The notes under the pieces: model-generated
The model's input: only the letters and a program-made list of their open reading frames with translations
Told to the model about the DNA's origin: nothing
Database searches by the model: none
Source of the DNA: Candidatus Doudnabacteria bacterium
Lineage (GTDB): Bacteria; Patescibacteriota; Doudnabacteria; UBA920; O2-02-FULL-48-8
Assembly: GCA_016182875.1 (NCBI GenBank)
Contig: JACPFQ010000004.1
Location: forward strand, 99,203-163,202
Reading direction: 5' to 3'
Length of the DNA stretch: 64,000 nucleotides
Made by a program: the position numbers and the translations under genes
Part shown: positions 2,499-62,329 of the stretch, piece after piece
Layout: each line of letters opens with the position of its first letter
How positions within the stretch are numbered: the first letter of the stretch is position 1

Positions 2499-3572
2499 AC
2501 TTTGTTTCACCGCACGAAGAGACAGCCCCAACCTGTGTTCGCCCGGTTCAATGGAAATAATCTTAAAATCTTTCATCTCATCTACCTTAACAACTTCCGA
2601 AGGGTCCCCGACTTCCTCATTTGATAACTCGACTGAATGAACCAGGCCGAAAATATTTGGTTCCACTTCCACAAAAGCCCCAAACGGCATAAGCCGGACG
2701 ATTTTGCCCTTAACAATTTGGCCGACCTGATACTTTTTTATCAAATCAAGCCAAGGATCGGCTTCGAGGCGCTTGATGGACAGTGAAACCCGATCTCTTT
2801 CTATAGAAATAATTTGAGCTTTTACCTTTTGGCCGACTTTGTAATGGTCTTTGGGGTGATCAATTCGATTCCAGGCCAGTTCGGAAATATGAACCAACCC
2901 CTCAAGGCCCTCGCCAAACTTCATAAAGATTCCGAAATCAACAATGCCCGTAACTTCACCCTCGACAATATTGCCGATCTTAAGCTTGCCGATCTTTTCC
3001 CTCAGCACGTCTTCATGGACAGCTTTCTCCGACACAATCAGCTTCTCGTCTTCCTGGGCGGCGGTGATTATTTGCACGTCAAATATCTGCCCGACATAAT
3101 CCTTAAGAATCTCCAGGATTTTATTCTTGTCGCCCTCTTCGACGCGGGGATAGTGCTCGGTGGAAAGCTGTGACACTGGCAAAAAGCCTATCACGCCGTT
3201 TACTTCAACCATCAAGCCGCCTTTATTGGCATCGAGAATCTTGGTCTTTATGACTTCCTTGCTTCTCATTCGATCCGTCAAAGTCTGCCAAACTCGTTCC
3301 TGTCCCGCCTGTCTGAAAGACAACTCAATATTGCCTTCTTTGTTTTCCGGGTCCACGACCGAGGCAAAAACTTTATCACCGGCCTTAAGTGTTGCGAGCC
3401 GCACCGATTCGTCATACAGCTCCCGACCGCGGACAACGCCCAGCCCTATGCCTTCAATGTCAATGTAGACCTCGTTTTTGCCCGCAGAGTAATCTGTTGT
3501 TTGAATCTGATTCATAAGCCTTAAGATTATAGGCTTATTGGAGGAAAAAATCAAGCCCTTTTGGCCTTTCAA
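2496..3572 (-). CDS. rpsA: 30S ribosomal protein S1 (four S1 domains)
   Basis: Repeated S1-domain pattern (GxV.G.V..I..fGaFV.l..g..GLvHiSe); 358 aa; a possible alternative start at M20 (~3515). Confidence 0.8.
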   Translation of the reverse strand: MKGQKGLIFSSNKPIILRLMNQIQTTDYSAGKNEVYIDIEGIGLGVVRGRELYDESVRLATLKAGDKVFASVVDPENKEGNIELSFRQAGQERVWQTLTDRMRSKEVIKTKILDANKGGLMVEVNGVIGFLPVSQLSTEHYPRVEEGDKNKILEILKDYVGQIFDVQIITAAQEDEKLIVSEKAVHEDVLREKIGKLKIGNIVEGEVTGIVDFGIFMKFGEGLEGLVHISELAWNRIDHPKDHYKVGQKVKAQIISIERDRVSLSIKRLEADPWLDLIKKYQVGQIVKGKIVRLMPFGAFVEVEPNIFGLVHSVELSNEEVGDPSEVVKVDEMKDFKIISIEPGEHRLGLSLRAVKQS

Positions 3573-3604
3573 ATCGGGTCAAAATTTGGTAGAATAAATA
3601 GGCA

Positions 3605-3681
3605 TTAAAACACGTAACACGTAGCATGGAACACGTAACAAACGGTTGCTTCCTGATACGTGATACATGATACGTGATACA
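3605..3681. repeat. Short tandem/dispersed ACGT-core repeats in the rpsA / MBL-hydrolase divergent promoter region
   Basis: ACACGTAACA x2 (plus the ACGTAGCA variant) and GATACGTGATACAT x2; the second tandem copy ends in the ATG of the 3681 gene. Confidence 0.5.
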
Positions 3682-4862: not shown

Positions 4863-7319
4863 ATGCCGAAGGAAATTGAAAATAGCCAAGCCATAGGCCA
4901 AATCAACCAAAGGCCCATTGAGCGGGAAATGGAAGAGTCTTACCTAGACTATGCCATGAGTGTGATTGTCATGCGGGCCCTTCCCGACGTCCGAGACGGC
5001 TTAAAGCCGGTGCACAGAAGAATACTCTATGCCATGTCGGAGCTGGGGTTGCGTTCCAGCGCCAAATTTAGGAAATCGGCCGCAGTGGTGGGAGAAGTTT
5101 TGGCCAAATACCATCCGCACGGCGACGTGGCGGTTTATGACTCACTCGTCCGGCTCGCGCAGGATTTCGCGATGCGCTATCCGCTCGTCGACGGGCAGGG
5201 CAATTTTGGTTCCATGGATGGAGACGCTCCCGCCGCCATGCGCTATACCGAAGCGCGGATAACCCGGCTGGCAGAGGAAATGCTCGTTGATTTGGAAAAA
5301 GAAACGGTTGACTGGATGGACAATTACGACGCTACCCGGAAAGAACCGAAGGTTATGCCGGCCAAACTGCCCCAGCTTTTGCTAAACGGCACTCTGGGAA
5401 TCGCGGTGGGCATGGCCACCGATATTCCCCCCCATAACTTGGGCGAAATCGCGGATGCCGCCGTCAAACTCATCGACGACCCCAAGGCGACCACCGAAGA
5501 TTTATTGGAACATGTCAAAGGCCCTGACTTTCCAACCGGCGGCTTCATATATGACTGGAACGGGATCAAACAAATTTACGCCACTGGCAAGGGGCCTATT
5601 GTCATGCGCGGCCGGACAGAAATAATCGAAGAGAAGGGCCAGCATAAAATCATCATCAATGAAATTCCCTACCGCGTGAACAAAGCCACGCTTTTGGAGC
5701 AGTTTGCGGGATTAGTTAAGGAGAAAAAAGTGGAGGGCATAAAAGATTTGCGGGACGAATCGGATAAAGACGGGGTAAGAATAGTAATCGAATTGAAAAA
5801 AGAAGCCTTGCCCAACAAAATTCTAAACCAGCTTTTTAAATACTCGAGCCTCCAGGAAACATTTCACGTCAACATGCTCGCGCTCGTCGACGGCATTGAG
5901 CCGCGGGTGCTTAACTTAAAAAACATTTTGGAGTATTACATCATCCACCGCCTGGAAGTCGTGCGCAGGCGGTCAGAATTCGACTTGGCCCGGGCGCGGG
6001 ACCGCGCGCACATCCTGGAGGGTTTAAAAAAGGCTTTAGACCATATCGACGCCGTAATCACGACAATCAAGAAGTCCAACACCACCGAAGAGGCGCATGC
6101 GGCGTTGATGAGCAGATTTAAATTAAGCGACAAGCAAGCTACGGCCATCCTTTTGATGCAGCTGCGGGCCCTGGCCGGACTCGAGCGGAAAAAAATCGAT
6201 GACGAACTAAAGGAAAAAAAGCAGCAAATCGAAGAGCTGCTAAGCCTGCTTGGCTCCGAGAAAAAGATGCGGGCTGTGATTAAGAACGAACTTAGCGAGC
6301 TGAAGACAAAATACGGAAACGACCGCAAAACGACCTTGATAAAAACACCCATCGGTGAATTCAAGGTCGAGGACCTTATTCCCGAAGAACAAACCATCGT
6401 GATTATCACCAAATCCGGATACGTTAAGCGCGTCCCGCCGCAAACATATAAAACCCAAGGCCGGGGAGGCAAGGGTGTAATCGGCATGACCACGAAAGAA
6501 GAAGACGTGGTCGAGTGGCTGATTACGACCAACACTCACGACGATATTCTGTTCTTCACGAACAAGGGCCGTGTGTTCCAAACCAAAGTCTATGAACTGC
6601 CGGAAGCGTCGAGAGTAGCGCGCGGACAGGCTTTGGTCAATTTCCTGGAGCTTCCCACGGACGAAACTGTCCGCAGTGTGCTGACCATTTCCAAAAAAAC
6701 TCCTCTGAAGTTTCTGGTCTTGGCGACCAGGCAAGGCCTAATCAAAAAAACCCCGATTGAAGAATTTGCAAAAGTCCGACGGTCAGGCTTAATTGCGATC
6801 AAATTAAAAGCCGGGGACGAACTGCGATTCGTCAAATATTCCACTGGCGTTGACGAAATCATCCTTTCGACCATCAACGGCCAAGCCATTCGCTTCGACG
6901 AAAAGGACGTGCGGAGCATGGGCCGGGCGACTTCGGGCGTGCGCGGCATCAGGCTCCGAAAGGGAGACGAGCTAATCAGCCTCGACCTCATTTCCAAAAA
7001 AGATGAGCCGAAAAACCTGCAACTTTTGATAGTCACGGAAAATGGCTTGGGCAAAAAAACCGACTTGTCACTGTACAAAAAACAGCGGCGGGGAGGTTCG
7101 GGAATCAAGACTTTGAAGGTCACGCCCAAAACCGGCAAGATCGAGTCCATGCATGTCGTCAATAAAACCGAAGAGCACGACCTCGTGGTCTTGTCCAAAA
7201 ATGGACAGGCGCTTCGCACTCCAATTGCCAAAATCTCAACGTTAGGCCGCGCCACGCAAGGTGTGCGCATCATGACCTTGGAAGACAAAGATAAGGTTGC
7301 TTCAACAACGCTGATATAA
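4863..7319 (+). CDS. gyrA: DNA gyrase subunit A
   Basis: [27 protein letters not shown] and the downstream topoisomerase IIA motifs; 818 aa. Confidence 0.95.
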
Positions 7320-9261: not shown

Positions 9262-10002
9262 ATGAGCGGGCACAGCAAATGGGCGCAAATCAAACGGCAA
9301 AAAGCAGTCACCGACGCCAAACGCGGCTCGCTGTTTACGAAGCTGGCCAAGAACATCACGGTGGCTGTGCGCGAAGGCGGGGGAACGGACCCTTCATTCA
9401 ACTTTAAGTTGCGCATGGCCATTGAGCAGGCGCGCGACGCCGCCATGCCCAACGAAAACATTGACCGCGCCGTCAAACGCGGCAGTGGAGAAGGAAAAGA
9501 GGCGATTGAGCAAGTGGCTTACGAAGGCTATGGGCCAGGAGGGTCGGCATTTATCGTGGAGGCGGTCACAGACAACAAAAACCGAACGACTGCCAATGTC
9601 CGAAGTATTTTTGACAAGCATGGCGGACGATTAGGCGAACAAGGATCCGTTGGTTGGATGTTCGAATCCAAAGGGCAGATCCTGATTGAAAACTCCGCCT
9701 TCGCTAAAGCTTCGGCGGACAAGCAGCCTGGCAATCTCGCACTCGAGCTGATTGACCAAGGGGTCGAGGACGTAAAAGAAACTGAAAACGGCTTGGAAGT
9801 TTATACGCTTCCCCTTGACTTGGAAAAAACCAAGAAATTCATTGAGGACAAAAAAATCAAAATCTTAAGCTCTGAGCTAATCATGCGCCCGGCGCAAAAC
9901 CTGGAAGTCGCAGAACAGGATAAGAAAAAAGTCCAGAATCTAATCAATGCCCTGCAAGACGATGATGACGTAGTAAACGTCCATAGCAACGTTAATTTGT
10001 AA
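9262..10002 (+). CDS. yebC: YebC/PmpR-family probable transcriptional regulator
   Basis: MSGHSKWAQIKRQK...GGTDPSFNFKLR signature. Confidence 0.9.
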   Translation: MSGHSKWAQIKRQKAVTDAKRGSLFTKLAKNITVAVREGGGTDPSFNFKLRMAIEQARDAAMPNENIDRAVKRGSGEGKEAIEQVAYEGYGPGGSAFIVEAVTDNKNRTTANVRSIFDKHGGRLGEQGSVGWMFESKGQILIENSAFAKASADKQPGNLALELIDQGVEDVKETENGLEVYTLPLDLEKTKKFIEDKKIKILSSELIMRPAQNLEVAEQDKKKVQNLINALQDDDDVVNVHSNVNL

Positions 10003-10086
10003 TTTTAAATTATCAATTTTAAATATAATTTTTATTATTTAAATATTTTATTTAAAATTTAAAACTATAAATTTAAAATTTTTCTC
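10003..10086. other. Almost pure A+T spacer (~84 bp) with TTTAAA/AAATTTAAAA repeats between yebC and ruvC
   Basis: Only three non-A/T bases across the tract; repeated ttaaat/aatttaaaa units. Confidence 0.5.
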
Positions 10087-10563
10087 ATGATTATTCTAGG
10101 AATTGACCCGGGCATTGGCCGCACCGGCTACGCCTTCCTGCAAAAAACAGGCGTAAAAATTACGCTGCTTGAAAGCGGCTGCATCACTACCAAGCCCGGC
10201 GGGCAGGAAGCCCACCGCCTGGCTGAAATAAAAAAAGACCTGGGGGCCTTAATCAGAAAACGGAAGCCTGATGCTCTGGCGGTTGAGTCTTTGTTTTTTG
10301 CTGCGAACACCAAAACAGCCATGAGCGTTGGGCAAGCCAAGGGAGTAATATTGCTTGCCGCGGCTGAGTCTAAACTGAAAATAGTGGAACTGACCCCCTT
10401 GCAGGTCAAAATGTCGGCCACCGGCTACGGCAAAGCTGACAAAACCCAGGTTCAGCGCATGGTGGCGAAACTTTTGAACCTAAAAAAAATTCCCAAGCCA
10501 GACGACGCCGCAGATGCGTGCGCCATAGCTTGGGCGGGGATAGGCCAGCGGACTACTGGCTGA
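10087..10563 (+). CDS. ruvC: Holliday junction resolvase RuvC
   Basis: MIILGIDPGIGRTGYAF...; RuvC fold and acidic catalytic residues. Confidence 0.9.
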   Translation: MIILGIDPGIGRTGYAFLQKTGVKITLLESGCITTKPGGQEAHRLAEIKKDLGALIRKRKPDALAVESLFFAANTKTAMSVGQAKGVILLAAAESKLKIVELTPLQVKMSATGYGKADKTQVQRMVAKLLNLKKIPKPDDAADACAIAWAGIGQRTTG

Positions 10564-19597: not shown

Positions 19598-19767
19598 GGG
19601 TAAACTGTTAATTAAAAATTACGGATTACGGGTTACGGATTTTTATACCGACGTTCCCCACAAGCTAAAAACAACAAGTTAAATAATCTAATTCGATAAT
19701 CCGCAATCCGTAATTAATAATTCCAACAAATACACAAACCCACAGTTTCTATTACCACTATTATTTT
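19598..19767. other. dnaA-dnaN intergenic region with inverted TTACGGAT-type repeats flanking an AT-rich core; alternative oriC candidate
   Basis: ttacggattacgggttacggatt ... aatccgcaatccgtaat (imperfect inverted repeats); TTCCCCACA and AACCCACAG as weak DnaA-box-like 9-mers. Confidence 0.3.
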
Positions 19768-22141: not shown

Positions 22142-23884
22142 CTATCTGTCTTCCTCCTCCCTTTCGTTATCGAGCTCCATGTGAAGGCCTTGTGAGACCC
22201 TCAACATGAATTCGCGGCGCTCGTTCGGCTTGCCGCCGAAGAACTTAAACCTTCTCTCGACCTTCTTGGGTTCGTGGGCCACCACGTGATCCGCGGTCAT
22301 CATATTGATGACCTTCTGTTCCGCCTCAAGCCCGTCGACATGCTGAGCGAGCGCGGTTACCGCACTGCGGGCTTCACCCGTGACCCGCTCGACGGCAGCG
22401 ATGCGGTCCATCATGGACTGCCGCAGCTCGGCACCGTACTTGGTAACGACTTCCGTGGCCTGCGCCCGCGCCGCTGTAGTGACCCGCGCCTCGAGCCCGT
22501 CGAGCCCACTGTACTGGATCCTCAGGGCAGCGAGCTGCTGGCCCTGCGCCTGAACTTGCCGACGGAGCGCGGTGATGTCAGCGCTTGGCTGCGGCTGGGT
22601 GACCTGCTTCTGCACCGCCTCGATGCGCTGCTGCAGTCGGTAACCCATGGCGTTGGTCTGGTTATCCATGACTGTCACGTATTTGTCGGAGACGATTGTT
22701 CGGCCGTCCTGGCAGGTGACACCGACCTTGGTAGCTACCTTCCGAGCGTTGACCGGGTCGATGTTGACCGTGCCCACCACTTGCGTGGGTGAAGCGCTCG
22801 TCACGGTCATGCTGACACCGCGCGTGATATTCACCGCCGTCGGGTTTCCGGTGCAGAGGTTGCTGCCCGACAGGGTCAGCATCTGCGGTACCGGGTGGTC
22901 CACGACGATGGTGTCCGGTGATATCGAGGTGATCTGTCCGGCGGCCTGTGCGAACGCTGCGTTCGCGTAGCCGCCAAACAGCAGCGCCAGGATGATCACG
23001 GGAACCACAGGAGCCGGAGCCGCGGGAACGGCGGGCTGAGCCGAGACTTCCGCCGAGTTCGGTCCCTCGCCAGACCCGTAGTACGCGCTCACGACGTAGA
23101 AGTATTGGGTGCCGTTCGTGAGCCCCGCTGCGTCGGTGTAGGTCGTCGCATTGGCCGTGCCGACGATTGTGTACGGGCCGCCGGCAGTCGTGGCGCGTTT
23201 GACCGTGTAGAACACAGCGCCTGTGATTGCCGCCCAGTTGAGGACGACCTGAGCGTTCCCTGGCGTTGCCGCAAGCCCTGTGGGAGCAGCAGGTCTGTGT
23301 GCTTCCTGAGCGCGCCGACGGACTTCGGCGTCGCGGTCCTCCGGTTGTGCAGGACCGCGCCGCCGTAAGAACCAGACGGCAATGATGAGCACGAGCAGTC
23401 CCACACCAGCCCAGACGAACGGGGCCAAGTTGATGGCCGCTGGCGGACAGCCGGTGGTCAGAACGGGCGTTCCCTGCGGGGTGTCCTTGCACTGGTCGAC
23501 GTTGTCCGCGACCTTGTCGCCGTCCGAGTCAGTGGCGGCCGGCGGCGGTTCCTGCGCCTTGTCTGCCGCCTGCTGCTGTTCTTGCGAACAGCCGTTGCGG
23601 AAGATGGGCACGCCTTGCGGGGTGTTGGCGCACTGGTCGTCGCTGTTCGGGATGCCGTCGCGGTCTGCATCCGCCACCGGGGTTGCCGGTTGCGGAGTTG
23701 GCGTTGGCGCGGGAGCCGCGGGCTGGCCCTGAGTGGCCGGTGGTGCCTGCGGCGCGGGCGCGGGTTGCGGAGTCGGCGGTTGCGCAGTCGCAGCCTCGGG
23801 CTCCTGTGGCACGACCGGAATCTGCGCGAACGCGCTGGCGCTGAGCGCCAGCATTGCGAGCACGAAAACGAACATTCTTATCAT
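22142..23884 (-). CDS. High-GC secreted/membrane surface protein. Order: signal peptide, Pro-rich linker, two TSP3-like Ca-binding repeats, TM helix, FN3-like domain, second signal-peptide-like segment, Cys-containing beta domain, long coiled coil
   Basis: I prefer ATG at 23884 (MIRMFVFVLAMLALSASAFAQ) with SD AGGAGGG 3 nt upstream over the track start at 24106. Repeats DADRDGIPNSDDQC and DSDGDKVADNVDQC. FN3-like segment NAQVVLNWAAITGAVFYTVKR...GTQYFYVVSAYY. Confidence 0.55.
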   Translation of the reverse strand: MIRMFVFVLAMLALSASAFAQIPVVPQEPEAATAQPPTPQPAPAPQAPPATQGQPAAPAPTPTPQPATPVADADRDGIPNSDDQCANTPQGVPIFRNGCSQEQQQAADKAQEPPPAATDSDGDKVADNVDQCKDTPQGTPVLTTGCPPAAINLAPFVWAGVGLLVLIIAVWFLRRRGPAQPEDRDAEVRRRAQEAHRPAAPTGLAATPGNAQVVLNWAAITGAVFYTVKRATTAGGPYTIVGTANATTYTDAAGLTNGTQYFYVVSAYYGSGEGPNSAEVSAQPAVPAAPAPVVPVIILALLFGGYANAAFAQAAGQITSISPDTIVVDHPVPQMLTLSGSNLCTGNPTAVNITRGVSMTVTSASPTQVVGTVNIDPVNARKVATKVGVTCQDGRTIVSDKYVTVMDNQTNAMGYRLQQRIEAVQKQVTQPQPSADITALRRQVQAQGQQLAALRIQYSGLDGLEARVTTAARAQATEVVTKYGAELRQSMMDRIAAVERVTGEARSAVTALAQHVDGLEAEQKVINMMTADHVVAHEPKKVERRFKFFGGKPNERREFMLRVSQGLHMELDNEREEEDR

Positions 23885-24133
23885 CACACCCTCCTGTGAG
23901 ATGTGAAAGTTGGCCTCGCGGCCAGTTGAAACGAAACGCTCTGACGGCGTTTGGCCGCGAGCCAGTGCGTGAACTCTAGTAGCACTGCTTTTATGTCTGA
24001 AATTTATCCTGATGTAAATCAGGATCAGGCACAAAAGTAATCCTACTAAAATGGGGAGGAGCGAGGCAGTCTTGGTAGACCAGCCTCGCCCCACTCCTTC
24101 TTGCATCTCAGCGCTTGCGCGCTGAGTTTCCTC

Positions 24134-25960
24134 CTATCTGTTGTCTTCCTCCGGTCCGCCGTTGGGTGGCGCACCGTTCCGGGTCTCGCACGGGGTGGCC
24201 AGACCGAGCGCCTCGGCGACTGCTTGCGACGCCGTCTTGCGCTGGTTGGGCTGTCCGCGTCTGAGGAACCTGCCGCCAACGCGGTCAGGCTCGTCGTACA
24301 CGACATGCTGCATCGCAATGCAGGTGCCGGTCTCGACGTTGCCCATCCTGCCTTGCAGGTTGTTGACGTACCCGGCCTGGGTTGTCAGGGTCTTCGCGAG
24401 CTCCCCGGCGTAGCTAAGCGTCTGGTCAGCAACGCTGCGCGTCGCCTTGCCTGCCTCTTCGGCTGCGGCAATGCGCGACACCATGCGCTCCTCGAGGGTC
24501 TGGAGGTCGCTGAGGACATCCGCACGCCGCGCGAAGGGAGCCCATGATGCCTGGAGAAGCTCGCCAGCTTTCGCGTGCGTCGGCTGGGCGGAGTAGTCCA
24601 GGTAGCGCTTGTTCCCCTCTTCCCGCCCGTAGACCTGCTGGAACTTCTCCTGCAGGTAGTGTGAGAAACGCGGGTCGCGTCCGAACCGCTCGGCCGTGAT
24701 GTCGAGCACGGTCGCCGATTCCTGGCTGATGATGCGGACGACCGAGTTGCCCGACGCGATGTCGCCTGCGTCGGTGTTCACCACGAACGCCGTGGTCCCC
24801 GGCATGGCAGTCGCGTCTGCCTGGAGCTTGCTGATGATGGTGTTGCCCTTCATCACAATCTCCGTAGTGGTGGCCACACCGGTGCCGGCGTTGATGCCCG
24901 TGACCTTGCCGAGCTTGGCGTTGCGCGGGCAGGCCATGGTGATGGTCACGTCCGCGGCGTTGCCGCCCTGCACCAGGTATCCGTTCTGCACACTGACAGA
25001 ACGGACGGTGCACGTCGGAACTGCAGGGGCCGCGGGAGCGGCGGGCTGACCCTGAGCAGGCACCTGTGCGGCTGCCGGCTGCGGCGCTGCCGGCGGGGCC
25101 GGGGCAGCCGCACCGGGAGCGGCCGGCGCCGTGGTGACGGGTGGGGTCGGCTGCTGGGCGAGGGCGCTGTTGGCGCCGAGCCCGAGCAGGATGGCGATGA
25201 CGATGCTTCTCATGACAGTTCCTCCGAGTTTCCGGTTGATGTTGATGCCGAACCCGATGACGAGTCCGACGAGAATCACGAACCCGACGGCCCCGCCGAT
25301 GACGATGTACCGCAGCTTCTGATCGGTCCGCCGCGTGTCCTGGCGGGCGAGTAGCGCGTTGTTGGACGCCTTGATCGAGTACTGCCGGTCCATCCACGAG
25401 TTGTCCGCCGACGAGGCGATTGCCTTCTCGATTCGTCCGATGAGCGAGGCTTCGACGTCGTTCAGGCGGTGCTCGACGTCAGTAGGCGACGCGTTGTACG
25501 GCGCGACCTTGGCGATGTAGGTTCGGGTCGCTTCGAGAGGCGGTTGCGACGAGTCGGTGACCTTGACCGTGACCGTGTAGTCATCGCCTGGGATTTCTTC
25601 GCCACGCGATGAATACAGGTAGGCCTGACTCTTGCTCGGCAACCAGACATCGAGAATGTCTCCGTTCTTGATCTCGTCGACGATCTCCCACTTGTAGGGC
25701 TCGGTCCCGCCGCGCGCCGCCAGGTTGAACTCCTTGTAGCGGCCGGATTCGAACGCGATGGTCGTGGGTTCGACGATTGTCAACGAACCGGTTGCTGTCG
25801 CGGGCGGCTGCTGGGTCGAACCCGTCGCGGGCGGCGCCTGCTGAGTCGAAGTACCGGGCTGGCGAATCGTCGCGGTCTGCGCGCCGAGCGGCACCAGGTT
25901 CAAGAGGAACCCGAGCAGCAAAATCGCTGCGCAGATGAGGTACTGAGTCAACTTCTTCAT
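24134..25960 (-). CDS. High-GC surface protein, paralogous architecture to 22142..23884. Order: signal peptide, Thr/Pro-rich linker, Ig-like domain, TM helix, second signal peptide (with internal RBS + ATG at 25213), Pro-rich linker, Cys-containing beta domain, coiled coil
   Basis: SD AAGGGAGAG before ATG at 25960. GGTEPYKWEIV...DDYTVTVKVTD resembles bacterial putative-Ig domains. Internal GGAGGA-6nt-ATG (M250, MRSIVIAILLGLGANSALAQQ) is in frame. Confidence 0.55.
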   Translation of the reverse strand: MKKLTQYLICAAILLLGFLLNLVPLGAQTATIRQPGTSTQQAPPATGSTQQPPATATGSLTIVEPTTIAFESGRYKEFNLAARGGTEPYKWEIVDEIKNGDILDVWLPSKSQAYLYSSRGEEIPGDDYTVTVKVTDSSQPPLEATRTYIAKVAPYNASPTDVEHRLNDVEASLIGRIEKAIASSADNSWMDRQYSIKASNNALLARQDTRRTDQKLRYIVIGGAVGFVILVGLVIGFGININRKLGGTVMRSIVIAILLGLGANSALAQQPTPPVTTAPAAPGAAAPAPPAAPQPAAAQVPAQGQPAAPAAPAVPTCTVRSVSVQNGYLVQGGNAADVTITMACPRNAKLGKVTGINAGTGVATTTEIVMKGNTIISKLQADATAMPGTTAFVVNTDAGDIASGNSVVRIISQESATVLDITAERFGRDPRFSHYLQEKFQQVYGREEGNKRYLDYSAQPTHAKAGELLQASWAPFARRADVLSDLQTLEERMVSRIAAAEEAGKATRSVADQTLSYAGELAKTLTTQAGYVNNLQGRMGNVETGTCIAMQHVVYDEPDRVGGRFLRRGQPNQRKTASQAVAEALGLATPCETRNGAPPNGGPEEDNR

Positions 25961-25989
25961 GACTTGCTCTCCCTTTTGCTAACGAGCGG

Positions 25990-26226
25990 TTATGGTTCAA
26001 CGACAGTCACGTTGACTGCCATCAGTACTGCGTCGAGGTCGAACGTGGCCTGCTTGCCGCGGATTCGTCCGCGCGGCACGTGGTCGTCCCGAATCTCGAA
26101 CTTGTCTCCGACGTGGTCGGGGCCCGTGAGGACTCTCACCTTCCAGACCATCCTGCTAGGGTTGGTTGGGGAAGGATTGAAGCCCACGACATAGCCGGTA
26201 TACGCCGGTGACCCTCTGATCGTCAA
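25990..26226 (-). CDS. Small hypothetical protein (78 aa, TTG start) leading the high-GC minus-strand operon
   Basis: SD-like AGAGAGG upstream of TTG; same high G+C; 30 nt upstream of the next gene. Confidence 0.35.
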   Translation of the reverse strand: MTIRGSPAYTGYVVGFNPSPTNPSRMVWKVRVLTGPDHVGDKFEIRDDHVPRGRIRGKQATFDLDAVLMAVNVTVVEP

Positions 26227-28138: not shown

Positions 28139-28162
28139 AAAAACCGCCCCGGAGGAGGCGGT
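28133..28162 (-). terminator. Rho-independent terminator for the minus-strand membrane-protein gene (hairpin CCGCC-ccggagga-GGCGG followed by a T-run on the minus strand)
   Basis: aaaaaaaaccgccccggaggaggcgg on the plus strand. Confidence 0.55.
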
Positions 28163-28215: not shown

Positions 28216-28791
28216 TTATTCCCTCAGCCCGGGTGCTTTGGCTTCGGGCGGGAGCTTGTCGTACAAATCAGAAATCAATTTGGAGACCGCGGTCGGGTTT
28301 GGGATGCGCGAGAACACGAACCGCTCGACTTCGCCGGCGGTTTGGATGTGGACATTGCCGTAATTTAAAAACGTCGGGAAAAAACCCTTAACCTCGGCCG
28401 TGACATCCTGCATGCGCGAGAGATAAACTTCGGAAATTTTGTGATGAATCAGGGAGTGCTGGTCAATGTCGACCACGCGCTCGTTGGTGACAATCTGGAC
28501 GTTGAGATAGTAAATCACCCAAAGCATGAGCAGGCCCAGGATCAGAAACAGCAGGTAGATGCTTTTGAGCAAAGCGTAAATTTCTTGGTAGGGAGAGACA
28601 AAGATAAAGGATGCGTAGTGGGGAAGGTATTGGTCAGCCAAAACCAGAATGGCCACGAACAGTAGCCAAAGTGCGAATCTGAGGGCAAATACAAACCAGT
28701 GCTGGCGGATGACGAGGTAAACTTCCTCGTTTTCCTGCTGGCCGGGGAACAGATTTTGCTTGAAGTGTTGTTTGAGGGTTGGCCAGTACAT
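28216..28791 (-). CDS. Hypothetical membrane protein (two TM helices plus a cytoplasmic domain)
   Basis: I prefer the start at M14 (MYWPTLKQ), where the repeated leader cassette ends exactly at the ATG; the track start is 28830. Confidence 0.5.
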   Translation of the reverse strand: MYWPTLKQHFKQNLFPGQQENEEVYLVIRQHWFVFALRFALWLLFVAILVLADQYLPHYASFIFVSPYQEIYALLKSIYLLFLILGLLMLWVIYYLNVQIVTNERVVDIDQHSLIHHKISEVYLSRMQDVTAEVKGFFPTFLNYGNVHIQTAGEVERFVFSRIPNPTAVSKLISDLYDKLPPEAKAPGLRE

Positions 28792-28796
28792 GATAG

Positions 28797-28868
28797 AATT
28801 TTGAATGATTAATTTTGAATTTTGATTCAAATTCGAATTTCAGAAATTAGAATATTCATTCGAAATTC
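28797..28868 (-). repeat. Copy 1 of a ~75-90-bp AT-rich promoter/leader cassette ending at the ATG of the downstream gene
   Basis: aattttgaatgattaattttgaattttgattcaaattcgaatttcagaaattagaatattcattcgaaatt; near-identical to copies 2 and 3. Confidence 0.6.
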
Positions 28869-28903
28869 CCGCCGGAGGCGAGGCTCGCCCAAGGCGGCAA
28901 AAC

Positions 28904-29128
28904 TCAAAATTTAATGCTGTTCAAATCGGTTTGGGCGGCGGCGAATAAGCTTGCGGCAATGATGATGTAAAGCAAAGACACGCTCGCGGAAACCAGTTTG
29001 GAGCGTCCGAAGCGGTTGAGGGCGTAGAGCGCCAGAAAGCTATAAAGCGCAAACCCGGCCATGAGGACATAGAAAACCAGCGCGATTATTGTGTGAATGA
29101 GATTTGTTGGTTCGTAGACAGTGAGCAT
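28904..29128 (-). CDS. Small hypothetical membrane protein (74 aa, 2 TM)
   Basis: The ATG coincides with the end of cassette copy 2; two hydrophobic helices. Confidence 0.5.
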   Translation of the reverse strand: MLTVYEPTNLIHTIIALVFYVLMAGFALYSFLALYALNRFGRSKLVSASVSLLYIIIAASLFAAAQTDLNSIKF

Positions 29129-29219
29129 GAATTTTGAATGATTAATTTTGAATTTTGATTCAAATTCGAATTTCAGAAATTAGAATATTCATTCGAAATT
29201 CTAAAATCGAAATTCAAAA
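29129..29219 (-). repeat. Copy 2 of the AT-rich promoter/leader cassette (between the ruvB stop and the small membrane-protein gene)
   Basis: gaattttgaatgattaattttgaattttgattcaaattcgaatttcagaaattagaatattcattcgaaattctaaaatcgaaatt... Confidence 0.6.
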
Positions 29220-30257
29220 TTATAATAAAGTCTCTCCTTTGGTTTCTTTTGCCGTAACTTTCAAATGCTCATAGGCCGCTGGCGTGGCTACGCGTCCTTT
29301 GGGTGTGCGGGCGATGAAGCCGAGCCTTAAGAGGTAAGGCTCGTAAACATCTTCCAAGGTTTCGGCTTCTTCCGAGGTCGCGGCGGCCAAGGATGTAATC
29401 CCCACCGGCCCGCCGCCGAATTTTTCGATAATGGTCAGAAGCATGCGCCGGTCGTTGGCGTCCAGTCCCAGGCTGTCGACCTCCAGCATGTCCAAAGCTT
29501 CCTGCGCCACCGAATCGATGATTCGCCCGGCGGCTTTGACCTGGGCGTAGTCGCGCACGCGCTTGAGCAGTCGATTGGCGATTCTGGGAGTTCTCCTCGC
29601 CCTGCGGGCGATTTCTTTCCGCCCGCCTTCGTTTATCTTGATTTTCAAAATATTGGCCGCCCGCTCAATGATTTTTTCGATTTCATCTTCTTCGTAATAG
29701 TCAAGCCGCAGAGTGGAGCCAAACCGGTCGCGAAGCGGAGAAGAAATAAGTCCGATCCGGGTCGTGGCGCCGATCAATGTAAATTTGGGAAGGTCAAGAC
29801 GCAGCGCTTTTGCTCCGGCGCCTTTTCCCAGGACAATATCCAAGCAGTAGTCCTCCATAGCCGGGTAAAGAATTTCTTCGACGACCTTGTTTAGGCGGTG
29901 GACCTCGTCGATGAACAAAACGTCATTGGGTTCAAGGCTGGTTAGGAGAGAGGCGAGATCCCCGGTTTTTTCTATGGCCGGGCCAGAAGTGATTTTGATG
30001 GCCACCCCGATTTCGCGGGCGATGATGTGGGCGAGCGTGGTCTTGCCCAGTCCCGGCGGCCCGTAGAGCAGAATATGCTCCAGCGTTTCCTTTCTTTTTT
30101 TTGCGGCATCAATGAAGATTTTGAGGTTGTCCTTGATTTTGGTTTGCCCGACGTACTCATTCAAGCTTTGCGGCCTCAGCGTTGCCTCAAAAAACCCTTC
30201 ATCTTTGGTTTGTTCTGGGTTGATGATGTCTATTTCTTCAGTGTTGGTGTTAATCAT
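29220..30257 (-). CDS. ruvB: Holliday junction branch-migration helicase RuvB
   Basis: AAA+ Walker [19 protein letters not shown]; RuvB C-terminal winged helix. Confidence 0.95.
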
Positions 30258-30275
30258 GGGTTAATTATAACAGCA

Positions 30276-30365
30276 TGAATTTTGAATTACTAATTTTGAA
30301 TTTTGATTCAAATTCGAATTTCAGAAATTAGAATATTCATTCGAAATTCTAAAATCGAAATTATA
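30276..30365 (-). repeat. Copy 3 of the cassette (upstream of ruvB), here followed by a 3-codon mini-ORF (ATG CTG TTA TAA) before the ruvB ATG
   Basis: gaattttgaattactaattttgaattttgattcaaattcgaatttcagaaattagaatattcattcgaaattctaaaatcgaaatt. Confidence 0.55.
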
Positions 30366-31791
30366 AATTCTCAAGAAACTTGATTCCATGATACACTCCC
30401 CAGCCGGAAGCACCCGCCGGCATATGCGGCCTGCTTTTTACGGTCCACGCCGTGCCCGCGATGTCGAAGTGAATCCAGGGAGTCTTGTCCACGAAGCTTA
30501 ACAGAAACAGGCTGGCCGTGATTGCCCCGCCCAGGCCCTTGTCGCCGGTGTTTTTGAGGTCCGCAATTTGGCTTTTAAGCTGGTCCTGGTATTCGTTCGG
30601 CAGGGGCATGAGCCACAATTTCTCTCCGGTCGCTTTCGCAGCTTTTGTCAGCTGCTGGTTATATTTTTCGCTGTTTCCGAAAGCCCCGGTCAGCTCGTCG
30701 CCCAAAGCGATGATGATGGCGCCGGTTAAGGTCGCGTAGTCGAGGATAAGCTTTGGCTGATAATGTTTCTTGGCGTAAGTAATGGCATCGGCCAAAATCA
30801 GCCGTCCTTCGGCGTCGGTGTTGATGATCTCTACGGTTTTGCCTGACATGGAGGTTAGGATATCGCCCGGCTTGGTCGCTCTTCCCGAAAGCAAATTTTC
30901 CGCGGACGGGATTAATCCCACCAGAGAAGTTTTAAGCTTGAGTTGGGCGGCAGCCTCGATTATTCCAAGGACCGTGGCGCCTCCGCACATATCGTACTTC
31001 ATTTCCTCCATTCGCTCCGCCGGCTTGATGGATATGCCGCCGCTGTCAAAAGTCAGCCCCTTGCCAATGAGCACAATCGGGTTTTGGTTCGAGGATTTTT
31101 TAGGAAGATACTCAATCACGATGAATTTAGGCGGTTCGTCCGAGCCGCGCGACACTCCAAGCAGCAGGCCCATGTTCTCTTTCTTGATATCTTTGGCGTC
31201 CAAGACTTTGAGTTTGAGCCGGTATTTGTCCGCAATCAGTTTGGCATGCTGCGCCAGATGAGCAGGCGTTGCGATGTTCGCCGGATGGTTGGCCAAATCG
31301 CGCGCTTTGTTTGCAGCCGATGCAACCATTGAGCCTCGCGCTATCGCTTTTTCCATGGCCTTGGTAATTCGGGGAACGGCCAAATAGATGTTTTCGAGAT
31401 TTATTTTTTCCTTTTCCTGTTTGTAGTAGTTAAATGAGTAGGAAGCAAAAACCGCGGCAAAGGAAATAATCTCAACGGCATCCGGGCTTTGAAGCTCCCG
31501 CAGGTCCCTAAGCAGGATTTGCAGCGAGGATGTCTTAAATTTTTTGGAAGCAGAAACAGCGGTCTGAATGGCCGTTCTTAAGCTTGCTGGGTTGAAGTTT
31601 TTATTTTCTCCCAAGCCCAAAAGCATCATTCGTCCCAGATTCTCTGAGTAAACCACGTGGGTTTCATTGGCCTTGCCTGTAAAATCTTGCAAGCCTAAAA
31701 CTTTAAACTCCTCGGCCGGCTGTTTTTTGGCAAACAAGGGAATGATTGTCAGGTCAGATTTATTGAGTTGTTTGGTCAGGCGGAGTTTCAT
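30361..31791 (-). CDS. pepA: Leucyl aminopeptidase (peptidase M17)
   Basis: NTDAEGRL signature and the conserved M17 catalytic region. Confidence 0.9.
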   Translation of the reverse strand: MKLRLTKQLNKSDLTIIPLFAKKQPAEEFKVLGLQDFTGKANETHVVYSENLGRMMLLGLGENKNFNPASLRTAIQTAVSASKKFKTSSLQILLRDLRELQSPDAVEIISFAAVFASYSFNYYKQEKEKINLENIYLAVPRITKAMEKAIARGSMVASAANKARDLANHPANIATPAHLAQHAKLIADKYRLKLKVLDAKDIKKENMGLLLGVSRGSDEPPKFIVIEYLPKKSSNQNPIVLIGKGLTFDSGGISIKPAERMEEMKYDMCGGATVLGIIEAAAQLKLKTSLVGLIPSAENLLSGRATKPGDILTSMSGKTVEIINTDAEGRLILADAITYAKKHYQPKLILDYATLTGAIIIALGDELTGAFGNSEKYNQQLTKAAKATGEKLWLMPLPNEYQDQLKSQIADLKNTGDKGLGGAITASLFLLSFVDKTPWIHFDIAGTAWTVKSRPHMPAGASGWGVYHGIKFLENL

Positions 31792-37924: not shown

Positions 37925-37945
37925 AGTATCGATGCTAATATACGA

Positions 37946-38341
37946 ATGAATACTAATTATACAAATAAATTAATTCATCCCGAGTTATCGTACACTTTAA
38001 CTGGCATCTGCTTTACGGTACATAACAATTTAGGAAGATTTTCGAGAGAGAAACAATATGCTGATGCTGTCGAAGGATTGCTGAAACAATCAAAGATTCC
38101 ATATAAACGTGAATTTAGAGTCACGGATACCGGAAATATTATCGATTTTCTTATTGACGATAAAATAGTTCTTGAAATAAAATCCAAACGGTTAATATTA
38201 AAAACTGATTTCTATCAAACTCAGCGCTATTTGCAATCGTCTAACAAAGATTTGGCCTTACTTGTTAATTTTCAGAACCGCTATCTTAAACCAATTAGGA
38301 TAGTACGCATTGAAACCGATGCTCGCAAAAAATTTATCTGA
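37946..38341 (+). CDS. GxxExxY-family protein (PD-(D/E)xK-like)
   Basis: 131 aa, conserved GxxExxY-type core (IDFLIDDKIVLEIK); AT-rich. Confidence 0.6.
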   Translation: MNTNYTNKLIHPELSYTLTGICFTVHNNLGRFSREKQYADAVEGLLKQSKIPYKREFRVTDTGNIIDFLIDDKIVLEIKSKRLILKTDFYQTQRYLQSSNKDLALLVNFQNRYLKPIRIVRIETDARKKFI

Positions 38342-38390
38342 GCGACAGCTATTAGTATCATTAGTAAATTAGTATATTCGCATCAATACC

Positions 38391-44539: not shown

Positions 44540-44740
44540 CCAGGTACTAGAAATTTGACTTAATTGTTCGACCGCTTAAGGTCTTTCTTCTAGCCGGTCG
44601 AAAATTAATATCGCGATATGTTTTTGATTGAGCGTTCTTTGCCTGAAAAACATAATCGCGGTCAAAATTTCAGTACCTGGCATCGTAAATTTCATTGTAT
44701 CAAATTAGACTGCGCTATGCATAGCAGTTATAATAAGCTT

Positions 44741-45307
44741 ATGATTGGTTCAATTCGCGGGAAAGTTCAATACAAGTCCGGCAGTTACATCATCTTGGAT
44801 GCCAATGGAGTGGGCTACAAAATTTTTGTCATCCCGCCCCTGCTCCTTAGTCTCAAGCAAAATCAGGATTTGGCCCTGGTGATTCATACTTATGTGCGGG
44901 AAGACCAGATTTCTTTGTATGGGTTCGAATCGCTTCCGGAGTTGGAATTTTTTGAACTGCTCTTGACCGTTTCCGGCATCGGCCCCAAATCCGCTTTGGG
45001 AATCATGTCGCTTGCCGGCCTGGAGATGATTAAGTCAGCCATCGTCAGCGAAGACCCTTCGGTGTTCACCAAAGTTTCGGGCATCGGCCGCAAAACCGCA
45101 GAAAGGGTGATCGTCGAGCTGAAAGAGAAACTGCGCGACGAATCGGAAAAGGTTCCAGTGGCCAAAGAGCATTCGGATGCGGTTGACGCCCTGTTGGCTT
45201 TGGGCTATACCCAGCAGGAAGCCAGAGATGCATTGAAGCAAGTGCCCAAGGAAATAACCACCCTATCGGAGAAAGTTAAAATTGCGCTGAAGAGTTTGAG
45301 TAAATAG
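44741..45307 (+). CDS. ruvA: Holliday junction branch-migration protein RuvA
   Basis: MIGSIRGKVQYKSGSYIILDANGVGYKIFV...; the track ORF begins upstream at 44618 and I prefer the ATG at 44741, which has a TATAAT just upstream. Confidence 0.85.
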   Translation: MIGSIRGKVQYKSGSYIILDANGVGYKIFVIPPLLLSLKQNQDLALVIHTYVREDQISLYGFESLPELEFFELLLTVSGIGPKSALGIMSLAGLEMIKSAIVSEDPSVFTKVSGIGRKTAERVIVELKEKLRDESEKVPVAKEHSDAVDALLALGYTQQEARDALKQVPKEITTLSEKVKIALKSLSK

Positions 45308-45410
45308 TGTTAATTCCTCCCCTAGAATAGGGGAGGTTAGGAGGGGTAGAGTACGAGCTTGAACCGTACCTCCCCTAGCCCCTCCTATTCTAGGAGGGGA
45401 ATTAAAATAT
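45308..45410. repeat. ~100-bp palindromic element (terminal inverted repeats TTAATTCCTCCCCTAGAATAGG / CCTATTCTAGGAGGGGAATTAA) filling the ruvA-femAB intergenic region
   Basis: Near-perfect 22-bp terminal inverted repeats plus internal sub-palindromes (GTACG...CGTAC). Confidence 0.5.
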
Positions 45411-57885: not shown

Positions 57886-58155
57886 TTGTATATGAAAACG
57901 CGGGCTTTTAATATTGCCTTGCCTCAAGAACTGGTGCAAAAGATAGATGAGGCCGCTCGAAAAGAATATCGCAATCGCAGCGAATTTATCCGCGAGGCGG
58001 TTTTGTTTCGTTTACAAGATTTGAAAAGTTGGGAAAGAATTTTTCAAGCGGGGAAACAGGCTGGAAAAAAGCTGAGGATTAAAAGCGAAGCGGATGTTGA
58101 CAAGATAGTATACGCATATCGCCATGGCCGAAAATCCAAAAAAGGTCGTAATTGA
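57886..58155 (+). CDS. Ribbon-helix-helix (CopG-like) antitoxin
   Basis: FNIALPQELVQKIDEAARKEYRNRSEFIREAV RHH pattern; overlaps the downstream PIN gene by 32 nt. Confidence 0.6.
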   Translation: MYMKTRAFNIALPQELVQKIDEAARKEYRNRSEFIREAVLFRLQDLKSWERIFQAGKQAGKKLRIKSEADVDKIVYAYRHGRKSKKGRN

Positions 58156-58552
58156 TACCAATGTTCTGGTGTCGGCGATCGTCTATGGCGGCAATCCAAG
58201 GAAGATTTTATCCCAGCTTTCAGCGAGAGAAATTTCGGCCGTAACCTCTGCCATTCTTTTGGCTGAATTGACCGATGTTTTGGCAAAGAAATTCAACTTT
58301 AACCGTGATGACATCCTGCTTATCGAAAGGCAAATCAAAAGACATTTTATTTTAGTTTATCCGCAGAAAACTGTTGATGTTTTGCCGGATAATAACCCAG
58401 ACAATCGTGTTTTAGAAGTTGCCTCCGAAGGAGATTGTGACTATATTATTACCGGAGACAAGGAACTGTTGCGGCTGAAGTTTTGGAATAGTATTGAAAT
58501 TTTAACTGCGTCAGAATTCTATGAAAAATTGTACATGGAGAAAAATAATTGA
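58124..58552 (+). CDS. vapC: PIN-domain toxin (VapC-like)
   Basis: VVIDTNVLVSAI...D...ITGD; PIN acidic residues. Confidence 0.75.
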   Translation: MAENPKKVVIDTNVLVSAIVYGGNPRKILSQLSAREISAVTSAILLAELTDVLAKKFNFNRDDILLIERQIKRHFILVYPQKTVDVLPDNNPDNRVLEVASEGDCDYIITGDKELLRLKFWNSIEILTASEFYEKLYMEKNN

Positions 58553-61896: not shown

Positions 61897-61931
61897 AGTA
61901 AATTAGTAACAAGAAACAAGAAATAAGATTG

Positions 61932-62285
61932 CTAATTCTTTTTATTTTGTATCAGCTTTGAGAGCATTTTTTGAACTTCAGTCAATAAACTTATCGCTTT
62001 TGTGTAGTCGATTTTGGGATACCTGTCGCGGCAAATGATTAATTGTGTTTCTAACTCGCAACTGGAAGCATAAGCGATTTCTAAAAAGCGAATAAATTCC
62101 ATTTTTCTATTTCGAGACCAGCCCTCAGCGATGTTCGAGGGAATTGAAATAGCACAGCGAAGCATTTGAGCTAAAAGAATAAACTGCTCTTGTTTAGGCA
62201 GTAAGTCCCCAATATCATAAATTAACTTTACCAGCTCAATCGATTTTCGCCAAACAATCAAATCTTTATACCCTGCGTAAGCCAT
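61932..62285 (-). CDS. Four-helix-bundle protein (23S rRNA intervening-sequence protein family)
   Basis: KDLIVWRKSIELVKLIY...IPSNIAEGWSR, typical of TIGR02436. Confidence 0.75.
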   Translation of the reverse strand: MAYAGYKDLIVWRKSIELVKLIYDIGDLLPKQEQFILLAQMLRCAISIPSNIAEGWSRNRKMEFIRFLEIAYASSCELETQLIICRDRYPKIDYTKAISLLTEVQKMLSKLIQNKKN

Positions 62286-62329
62286 AGTTTGTTCTAATTA
62301 CTTGTCTCTATTTTCTAATTACTAATAGC

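Follow-up and report, generated by a model that had tools for sequence, protein, structure and literature searches.

A heptamer-built inverted-repeat cassette at three gene junctions around ruvB in a Candidatus Doudnabacteria genome

The pepA-ruvB gene cluster of a Candidatus Doudnabacteria genome carries three copies of a short AT-rich repeat, hereafter called the cassette. The cluster lies in a 64-kb stretch of contig JACPFQ010000004.1, hereafter called the window, to which all of our copy counts refer. Four genes make up the cluster: pepA, ruvB and two genes for membrane proteins, the last of them followed by a terminator-like site (Table 1). The three cassette copies fill the three junctions between these genes.

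Table 1. Features of the ruvB cluster, the cassette copies and two elements with open reading frames (ORFs), in window coordinates
Feature	Position	Strand	Remarks
Host cluster	28216-31791	minus	four genes, junctions filled by three cassette copies
pepA (M17 peptidase)	30361-31791	minus	
Copy 3 left-arm extension	30350-30370	minus	GAATTTA TAATTTC GATTTTA, in 7-nt register
Copy 3 core	30277-30349	minus	GAATTTCGAATGA...TAATTCAAAATTC; separates pepA from the ruvB promoter; differs from copies 1 and 2 by 2 substitutions
Mini-ORF	30276-30265	minus	ATG CTG TTA TAA; overlaps the putative ruvB extended -10
Putative ruvB extended -10	30264-30272	minus	TGTTATAAT, then TAACCC, then ATG (30272-30255)
ruvB	29220-30257	minus	
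Copy 2 left-arm extension	29202-29222	minus	TAATTTT GAATTTC GATTTTA; begins with the ruvB stop codon TAA
Copy 2 core	29129-29201	minus	flush with the ATG of the 74-aa gene
Copy 2 termini			13-nt inverted, GAATTTCGAATGA / TCATTCAAAATTC, 12/13 complementary
74-aa protein gene (two transmembrane segments)	28904-29128	minus	
GC-rich hairpin	28869-28898	minus	GCCGCC..GGGCGAG CCT CGCC..GGCGG; outside the repeat, between the 74-aa stop and copy 1
Copy 1 core	28796-28868	minus	identical to copy 2 at 73/73 positions; then TATC and the ATG of the 191-aa gene
191-aa bPH_2-like membrane protein gene	28216-28791	minus	
Terminator-like site	28143-28162		after the last gene of the cluster
GxxExxY element	37925-38390	plus	GxxExxY / PDDEXK_3 ORF 37946-38341; TIGR04256
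Four-helix-bundle element	61897-62329	minus	ORF 61932-62285 enclosed by heptamer-periodic inverted arms

The cassette and its junctions

The cassette has a 73-nt core that occurs as three direct copies on the minus strand, 97–100% identical to one another. An earlier note on this DNA had described three near-identical copies, and the core alignment, the count of a core 32-mer (three occurrences against 0.00 expected from 100 shuffles) and a search of the window bear this out. Neither blastn-short nor nhmmer found a fourth copy in the 64 kb; their additional matches pair the cassette only with its own reverse, because the cassette is palindromic. The note also had the copies end precisely at an ATG. 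This holds for copy 2, whereas four nucleotides intervene in copy 1. Copy 3, which had been given as ...AATCATTC, actually reads ...AGTAATTC, and these two adjacent-word positions are where its substitutions lie.

Copies 2 and 3 also share a long form, running from the upstream stop codon (TTA TAA ...) to ...AAAATTC ATGCT. Their left-arm extensions differ by a one-heptamer indel or by two substitutions. The extension of copy 3 takes in the TAA stop and the two final codons of pepA, whose product ends in ...LENL here and in ...LK in relatives. Copy 1 consists of the core alone, set between the GC-rich hairpin and TATC, and the junction that holds this hairpin and copy 1 folds at -34.9 kcal/mol.

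Two features define the architecture of the cassette. One is inversion: the limits of the core coincide exactly with its 13-nt inverted termini, and in the long form the imperfect inverted repeat extends to 34 nt, with arms that are 74% complementary. The other is a seven-nucleotide register. The left arm reads (TAATTTT) GAATTTC GATTTTA GAATTTC GAATGAA and the right arm TTGAATC AAAATTC AAAATTA ATCATTC AAAATTC; among lags 1–21 the strongest is 7 (identity 0.60, z 5.4), and lags 14 and 21 are its harmonics. A heptamer word opens with the stop codon TAA in both copy 2 and copy 3, and five in-register heptamers end 0 nt (copy 2) or 4 nt (copy 1) before the ATG. The cassette is 78% A+T, contains no Shine-Dalgarno (SD) sequence and has stop codons in all three sense frames, leaving no through-ORF. 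The predicted sense-strand fold places a hairpin in the 5' two-thirds and leaves the last ~21 nt before the AUG unpaired; the closing stem is seen in the centroid structure of copy 2, where it is weak.

Comparison with relatives indicates how these junctions arose. The RuvB of the window is 100% identical to a protein of a Candidatus Doudnabacteria metagenome-assembled genome, on a 327-kb contig. We compared five other Doudnabacteria (loci among L001–L007) whose RuvB proteins are 82–91% identical to that of the window; a search with the 191-aa protein yielded a single close locus, on the contig of L002 itself. All five share the gene order tsaE-vanW-peptidase-ruvB-74aa-191aa, and the cassette, including the copy before ruvB, is absent from 5/5. 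The three junctions of L003 from pepA to the 191-aa gene measure 9, -1 and 1 nt, the last junction of L004 measures 1 nt, and the pepA-ruvB junctions of L001 and L002 measure 22–23 nt. The longer junctions of these relatives hold other sequences, all of them long hairpins, which start 0–4 nt past the stop codon, end 0–17 nt before the start codon and fold with mononucleotide-shuffle z scores of -1.7 to -5.1. One such hairpin family, unrelated to the cassette, sits at different junctions in L002 and L007, and the 74aa-191aa junction of L001 contains a GxxExxY gene between inverted word-repeat arms. In an all-against-all comparison of spacers from the window and the five relatives, the cassette was the sole strong repeat family.

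Because the cassette is missing from relatives whose junctions are tight or otherwise filled, its copies are lineage-specific insertions. The ancestral cluster was thus tightly packed and probably translationally coupled, and different lineages later gained different hairpin "fillers" at its junctions. Insertion into junctions of ~0–1 nt is the simplest explanation of the adjacency to ATG, since an element placed there touches both stop and start codons.

The same comparison bears on the promoter of ruvB. A box of the form (A/T)TGCTATACT precedes ruvB in all relatives; its distance from the ATG is 6 nt in L001, L004 and L007, and 12 nt in L002. The window's TGTTATAAT with its 6 nt and ATG is homologous to this box, which has the form of an extended -10 placed for a leaderless or near-leaderless mRNA. 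Throughout the window, TGnTAnnnT occurs at 3.0 per kb in the 60 nt before genes against 0.72 per kb overall (4-fold), and seven such boxes lie 4–12 nt from an ATG; this enrichment and spacing make the TGnTAnnnT extended -10 the likely promoter type of this genome. No such box is present on the sense strand of the cassette. The earlier note had seen a possible leader peptide in a mini-ORF 10 nt before ruvB. The actual gap to the ruvB ATG is 7 nt, the mini-ORF's ATG belongs to the conserved box, and the relatives have no conserved mini-ORF, so a leader peptide is not supported.

Two further features were seen in the relatives' loci. In the RIFCSP Doudnabacteria loci L004–L006, a diversity-generating retroelement (RVT_1 and bAvd; 5672-7060) lies between vanW and the peptidase gene, which there encodes an M29 enzyme as against M17 in the window. 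In L002, 43-nt inverted repeats that are 91% complementary (2507-2549 and 3509-3551) stand on either side of an aldo-keto-reductase gene, a further gene with one sequence at both of its junctions.

A wider heptamer-hairpin family and rRNA intervening sequences

A 25-mer from the centre of the cassette had no match in two large collections, one of genome contigs and one of metagenome contigs. The cassette termini behave differently. A pattern consisting only of the two 12-nt termini, 40–65 nt apart, matched at least 120 metagenome contigs and no viral contigs. Among the matches listed are 109 distinct elements of 66–118 nt (median 92) that share one architecture: tandem GAATnnn heptamers, a variable and often GC-rich centre, and complementary nnnATTC heptamers. 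The arms mostly extend past the search pattern, and the cassette termini are the commonest words of the family. Resemblance also reaches outside the pattern: L098 shares the 14-nt TAATTTTGAATTTC with the cassette, and AAAATTC runs occur in the low-GC members L021, L082 and L108. The cassette has the arms, the size and the intergenic site of a GAAT-word heptamer hairpin.

Among the listed elements, 92 are in contigs of at least 55% G+C, mostly from soil, and 17 in low-GC contigs. The hosts checked were Acidobacteriota for the former (L030) and, for the latter (L082), Candidatus Moranbacteria, another lineage of the candidate phyla radiation (CPR). Listed elements occupy co-oriented (43), divergent (18) and convergent (13) spacers, and by crude ORF calls about half are flush with both neighbouring ORFs. 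Start codons were not enriched at element ends, in a crude control with ORF calls that are noisy in high-GC DNA. Two contigs contain two copies each, 3.9 kb apart in L030 and as a tandem duplicate in L110. None of the family loci examined has an ORF between the arms. Rfam gave no match to the cassette at E of 10 or less beyond noise, and none to acidobacterial or CPR family members. A literature search with the heptamer strings returned no bacterial matches, and we found no description of the GAAT-word family, or of a connection among junction inserts, heptamers and intervening sequences (IVSs) of rRNA, in the searchable literature.

Some family members have particular surroundings. In the high-GC soil contig L110 (3100-3406), a heptamer hairpin and a 14-codon ORF form a unit that is tandemly duplicated, the hairpin starting within a stop codon (GAA TGA ATTTCG) and ending ...GAAATTC ATG. 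Two low-GC members, in L108 (2194-2848) and L034 (2-552), lie ~80–170 nt from a tmRNA gene.

Two near-identical copies of a family member are rRNA IVSs. L021 is a fragment of a 23S rRNA gene in which the GAAT-word hairpin forms a ~125-nt insert in the apical loop of the helix at model position ~1215. In L033 this element recurs, at one mismatch, as an insert of 127 nt in the apical loop of a helix at ~165. L033 overlaps L021 by an exact 55 nt, which makes it the 5' part of the same 23S gene. The two inserts are ~1.1 kb apart, and by position they correspond to the classical IVS regions at helices 9 and 45. At about 1-100 of L033 (model ~275–340) there is a third insert, built of AAATCCT heptamers; a CCAGUGCUUCGCACUGG stem precedes it, as it does the other two.

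Published IVSs share several of these properties. In Coxiella burnetii the helix-45 IVS is a stem of terminal inverted repeats that is cut by RNase III, and the start codon of its S23p gene directly follows two or three heptamers in tandem and a further, degenerate one, their number varying among strains (PMC4990558). The cassette is likewise a hairpin closed by terminal inverted repeats, with tandem heptamers of varying number beside a start codon; a family member with the cassette termini occupies two helices of a single 23S gene as an IVS; and in the window such a hairpin encloses the gene of an IVS-type four-helix-bundle protein. The cassette differs from IVSs in lying between protein-coding genes and not in a 23S helix loop (helices 9, 25 and 45), in having no S23p/PF05635 ORF, and in its weak, AU-rich stem.

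That four-helix-bundle element is one of two ORF-bearing elements of the window with the same layout. Its ORF encodes a four-helix-bundle / 23S-rRNA-IVS protein (PF05635, E 1.5e-31; TIGR02436), and its closing stem of ~30 bp reaches from 8 nt past the upstream stop codon to 2 nt before the downstream ATG. The stem of the other, the GxxExxY element, reaches from 1 nt past the stop codon of an aldo-keto-reductase gene to 4 nt before the ATG of polA (z -3.5). In L001 and L002, GxxExxY genes are found at other junctions, which implies that they move. We found no literature on elements flanking GxxExxY or four-helix-bundle ORFs. The cassette is best seen as the ORF-less form of this element class.

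The cassette can also be compared with other small intergenic repeats. TAACTGA heptamer repeats of Beggiatoaceae, Cyanobacteria and Bacteroidetes lie flush with SD-less start codons (PMC4679880). The cassette resembles them in its 7-nt periodicity, in arrays that end 0–4 nt before SD-less start codons, in its absence from close relatives with shorter spacers, in indels of 7-nt steps, and in a cross-phylum distribution with no known mechanism. It differs in its words, which are GAATnnn/nnnATTC (AAAATTC, ATCATTC, GAATTTC), in arrays that pair as the inverted arms of a hairpin, and in having only three, clustered copies. Cyanobacterial short tandemly repeated repetitive (STRR) heptamers are a further parallel. 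Enterobacterial repetitive extragenic palindromes (REPs) and bacterial interspersed mosaic elements (BIMEs) are, like the cassette, hairpins within operons that can shape mRNA stability or processing and are not promoters. REP units are ~35 bp, GC-rich and linked to REP-associated tyrosine transposases (RAYTs); the cassette is 73–98 nt, AT-rich and heptamer-built, and no RAYT is encoded in the window. By analogy, the cassette seems most like a transcribed hairpin of the IVS or REP type combined with heptamer repeats before start codons.

Several named classes were considered and rejected. Mycobacterial interspersed repetitive units (MIRUs) are intercistronic elements of 40–100 bp that are co-transcribed within operons and touch the flanking stop and start codons with their ends (Supply 1997, as summarised in PMC3184786). 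They match the cassette in size, intercistronic site, stop/start contact and empty sites in relatives, but they carry a small through-ORF overlapping both codons, are GC-rich and often tandem, and have 4-nt direct repeats; having stops in all frames and no through-ORF, the cassette is not a MIRU. Correia elements and the Neisseria REP2, which ends with a ribosome-binding site (RBS) and ATG, are also small and intergenic, with inverted termini, just upstream of genes (PMC3184786). The cassette lacks a convincing target-site duplication, an RBS, a promoter box of the host type and a parent transposase, and its copies in the window are clustered; with no TGnTAnnnT, no SD and only weak generic hexamers, it was rejected as a REP2/Correia promoter cassette. 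Terminal inverted repeats are present as in miniature inverted-repeat transposable elements, an identity rejected on the three clustered copies, the lack of a transposase domain in the ~57 ORFs of the 64 kb and the lack of a convincing target-site duplication. TIGR (Tas-associated guide RNA) arrays have alternating edge and loop repeats, UG...CCA boxes, 9-nt spacers, a 36-nt period and an adjacent gene for a Nop-domain Tas protein (PMC12045711); the cassette has no CCA and a period of 7 rather than 36, and no window ORF has a Nop domain. Integron attC sites and gene cassettes, in which repeats delimit inserted promoterless genes beside an integrase, were rejected on gene order, which is ancestral in repeat-free relatives, and on the lack of an integrase in the window.

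Origin and function of the cassette

We think it probable that the cassette is an ORF-less, IVS-like junction element built of heptamers that spread locally into three tight junctions. The earlier note had proposed a discrete, portable unit that spread locally, and this part of its interpretation stands: the unit is absent from the five order-sharing relatives and belongs to a widespread family. Its promoter and leader-peptide parts do not. Spread would have taken place within one transcription unit, by a mobility mechanism or by gene conversion. Such local spread has parallels in the double copy within one 23S gene and in L002 and L007, where adjacent junctions hold related hairpins. Once in place, the copies would be co-transcribed with the genes of the cluster. 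The hairpin of the 5' two-thirds could, by analogy with rRNA IVSs, be an RNase III substrate, and the AU-rich, SD-less, unpaired last ~21 nt may serve as the initiation region of the next cistron. The net effect on expression would probably be small, or consist in an uncoupling of the cistrons.

A number of observations weigh against this reading. No transposase, RAYT, integrase or Nop-domain protein was found among the ~57 window ORFs scanned. There is no convincing target-site duplication: TTATAATT flanks copy 3 only, where it falls on the stop codon and on the -10 box, and copies 1 and 2 have no comparable flanks. The predicted fold of the sense strand has only a modest energy (-19 to -21 kcal/mol, z ~-2.6), and the antisense strand folds slightly better. 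Among the 43 co-oriented family members, sense and antisense folding compare as 16 to 26 (p 0.26), with no asymmetry; selection for RNA structure is therefore not shown and an RNA role remains an analogy. The cassette is a degenerate member of its family, with only two canonical GAAT words, both at the left terminus, an AT-rich rather than GC-rich centre, and a register that degenerates there. The search that yielded the family used the termini of the cassette itself, so that the resemblance is partly by construction. Finally, copy 3 has a sense-strand sigma-70-like match, TTGAGA-17-TAGAAT, at 10/12 positions.

This last match bears on the proposal of the earlier note, a portable promoter/5'-UTR (untranslated region) cassette of which each copy drives the gene downstream. 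The cassette is AT-rich, contains several -10- and -35-like hexamers and lies upstream of genes in a single orientation in every copy; copy 1 adds a second sense match, TTCAAA-18-TATCAT, and REP2 and Correia elements provide precedents (PMC3184786). Yet the -35 of the copy 3 match lies inside the pepA coding sequence, outside the repeat, the copy 1 match has a -10 that overlaps the ATG, and the only sigma-70 match common to all copies, TTCAAA-16-TAGAAT, is on the antisense strand. The sense cassette is devoid of the box enriched before genes here, ruvB retains its ancestral promoter downstream of the cassette, and relatives express the same genes from junctions of 0–23 nt, with the genes of the tightest overlapping or 1–9 nt apart, as in an operon. 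Promoter activity is thus not supported; the cassette is probably not a promoter cassette, and we give that proposal a low probability. Slightly better placed, though still unlikely, is a translation-initiation element, in which the heptamers would be the binding site of a single-strand RNA-binding protein (S1, Csp or similar) and would govern translation of the downstream cistron, as has been proposed for TAACTGA repeats. The in-register heptamers that run up to the ATG, the missing SD, the unpaired 3' end and the TAACTGA parallel (PMC4679880) all suit it, and it is compatible with an IVS-like junction element. On the other side, family element ends are not enriched for start codons, the family also occupies divergent and convergent spacers, copy 3 adjoins a promoter and not a start codon, and relatives translate the same genes without the cassette.

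Two further explanations are much less probable. A neutral spacer triplicated purely locally, and without relatives anywhere else, would suit the three copies, which are all within 1.6 kb, and the centre 25-mer, which matched nothing in the two collections. This account is contradicted by at least 120 contigs in which the termini and the words next to them are found again in the same architecture. Nor is there any duplication of the genes that separate the copies, and these genes stand in their ancestral order; we consider this account very improbable. A shared operator, at which one regulator of the three genes binds the palindromes GAAATTCGAATTT, GAATATTC and TTTGAATCAAA, would explain why identical palindromic sequence precedes three genes. 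It is the least credible of the explanations, since the sequence is absent from all relatives with the same genes and has no more copies in 64 kb, the palindromes are a by-product of GAATTT/AAATTC words, and these words are also found within a 23S rRNA gene and in distant phyla.

An IVS-like junction element invites a broader proposal, which we regard as doubtful: the IVSs of 23S rRNA may be the rRNA subset of a larger, cross-phylum class of heptamer-arm hairpins that insert at the boundaries of units of functional RNA, spread preferentially inside a single transcription unit and are excised from the RNA, or cut in it, by RNase III. The boundaries would be the tips of rRNA helices and the stop/start junctions of operons, and spread would have produced the three copies in 1.6 kb here as well as the two 1.1 kb apart in the 23S gene. 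Cleavage by RNase III would turn a coupled operon into separately processed, near-leaderless mRNAs. If such a class exists, the GAAT heptamer shared by Acidobacteriota and CPR would point to a conserved trans-acting factor for mobility or binding.

The tempting claim of a mobile promoter driving a DNA-repair gene is thus removed, and its replacement is a link among rRNA IVSs, intergenic heptamer repeats and multi-copy four-helix-bundle/GxxExxY ORFs. All three phenomena occur in one small CPR genome with a shared stop-stem...stem-start layout, and the main interest of the locus is that operon-junction inserts, heptamer repeats and rRNA IVSs could be tied into one class. The origin and mobility of IVSs have been an open question since 1990. 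If the link holds, the hundreds of datable insertions between protein genes could be used to study them, and would also show how leaderless or SD-poor genomes tolerate inserts in coupled operons.

Other palindromes, heptamers and islands in the window

All three ruv genes adjoin long palindromic junction fillers. An 87-nt AT-rich palindrome (9994-10080) ends 6 nt before ruvC (10087-10563), a 96-nt palindrome with 48-nt arms at 77% (45310-45405) starts 2 nt past ruvA (44618-45307), and the cassette lies on both sides of ruvB (28796-30370). The placement of ruvABC next to cruciform-forming DNA may be chance, as palindromic spacers are many here.

Heptamer periodicity recurs in two other spacers. 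The divergent spacer between an S1 protein gene and a metallo-beta-lactamase-fold gene (3573-3680; lag 7 z 4.9, lag 14 z 4.6) contains the array GATACGT GATACAT GATACGT GATAC, flush with the ATG at 3681, and CACGTAA-type words on the opposite side. The dnaA-dnaN spacer (19598-19767) has inverted ATTACGG/CCGTAAT heptamer arms (lag 7 z 3.6) and, unlike other spacers, is conserved, with 79% identity to L004 across 168 nt, and may belong to oriC. TACGGAT words similar to these arms flank the GxxExxY gene in L001.

A GC-rich island (22142-26226; 61–66% G+C against ~47% elsewhere) lies between recF and an SLT/DUF5715 gene, a site at which relatives have a different insert or none. It encodes ORFs of 654 aa (weak fn3/TSP3), 608 aa (no Pfam match) and 78 aa, preceded by SD-like GGAGG/GGGAG, unlike most window genes, and was likely acquired horizontally. 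At 57886-58552, a ribbon-helix-helix (CopG/HicB-like) antitoxin and a PIN-domain toxin are encoded in overlapping frames behind a TTGACA-type promoter.

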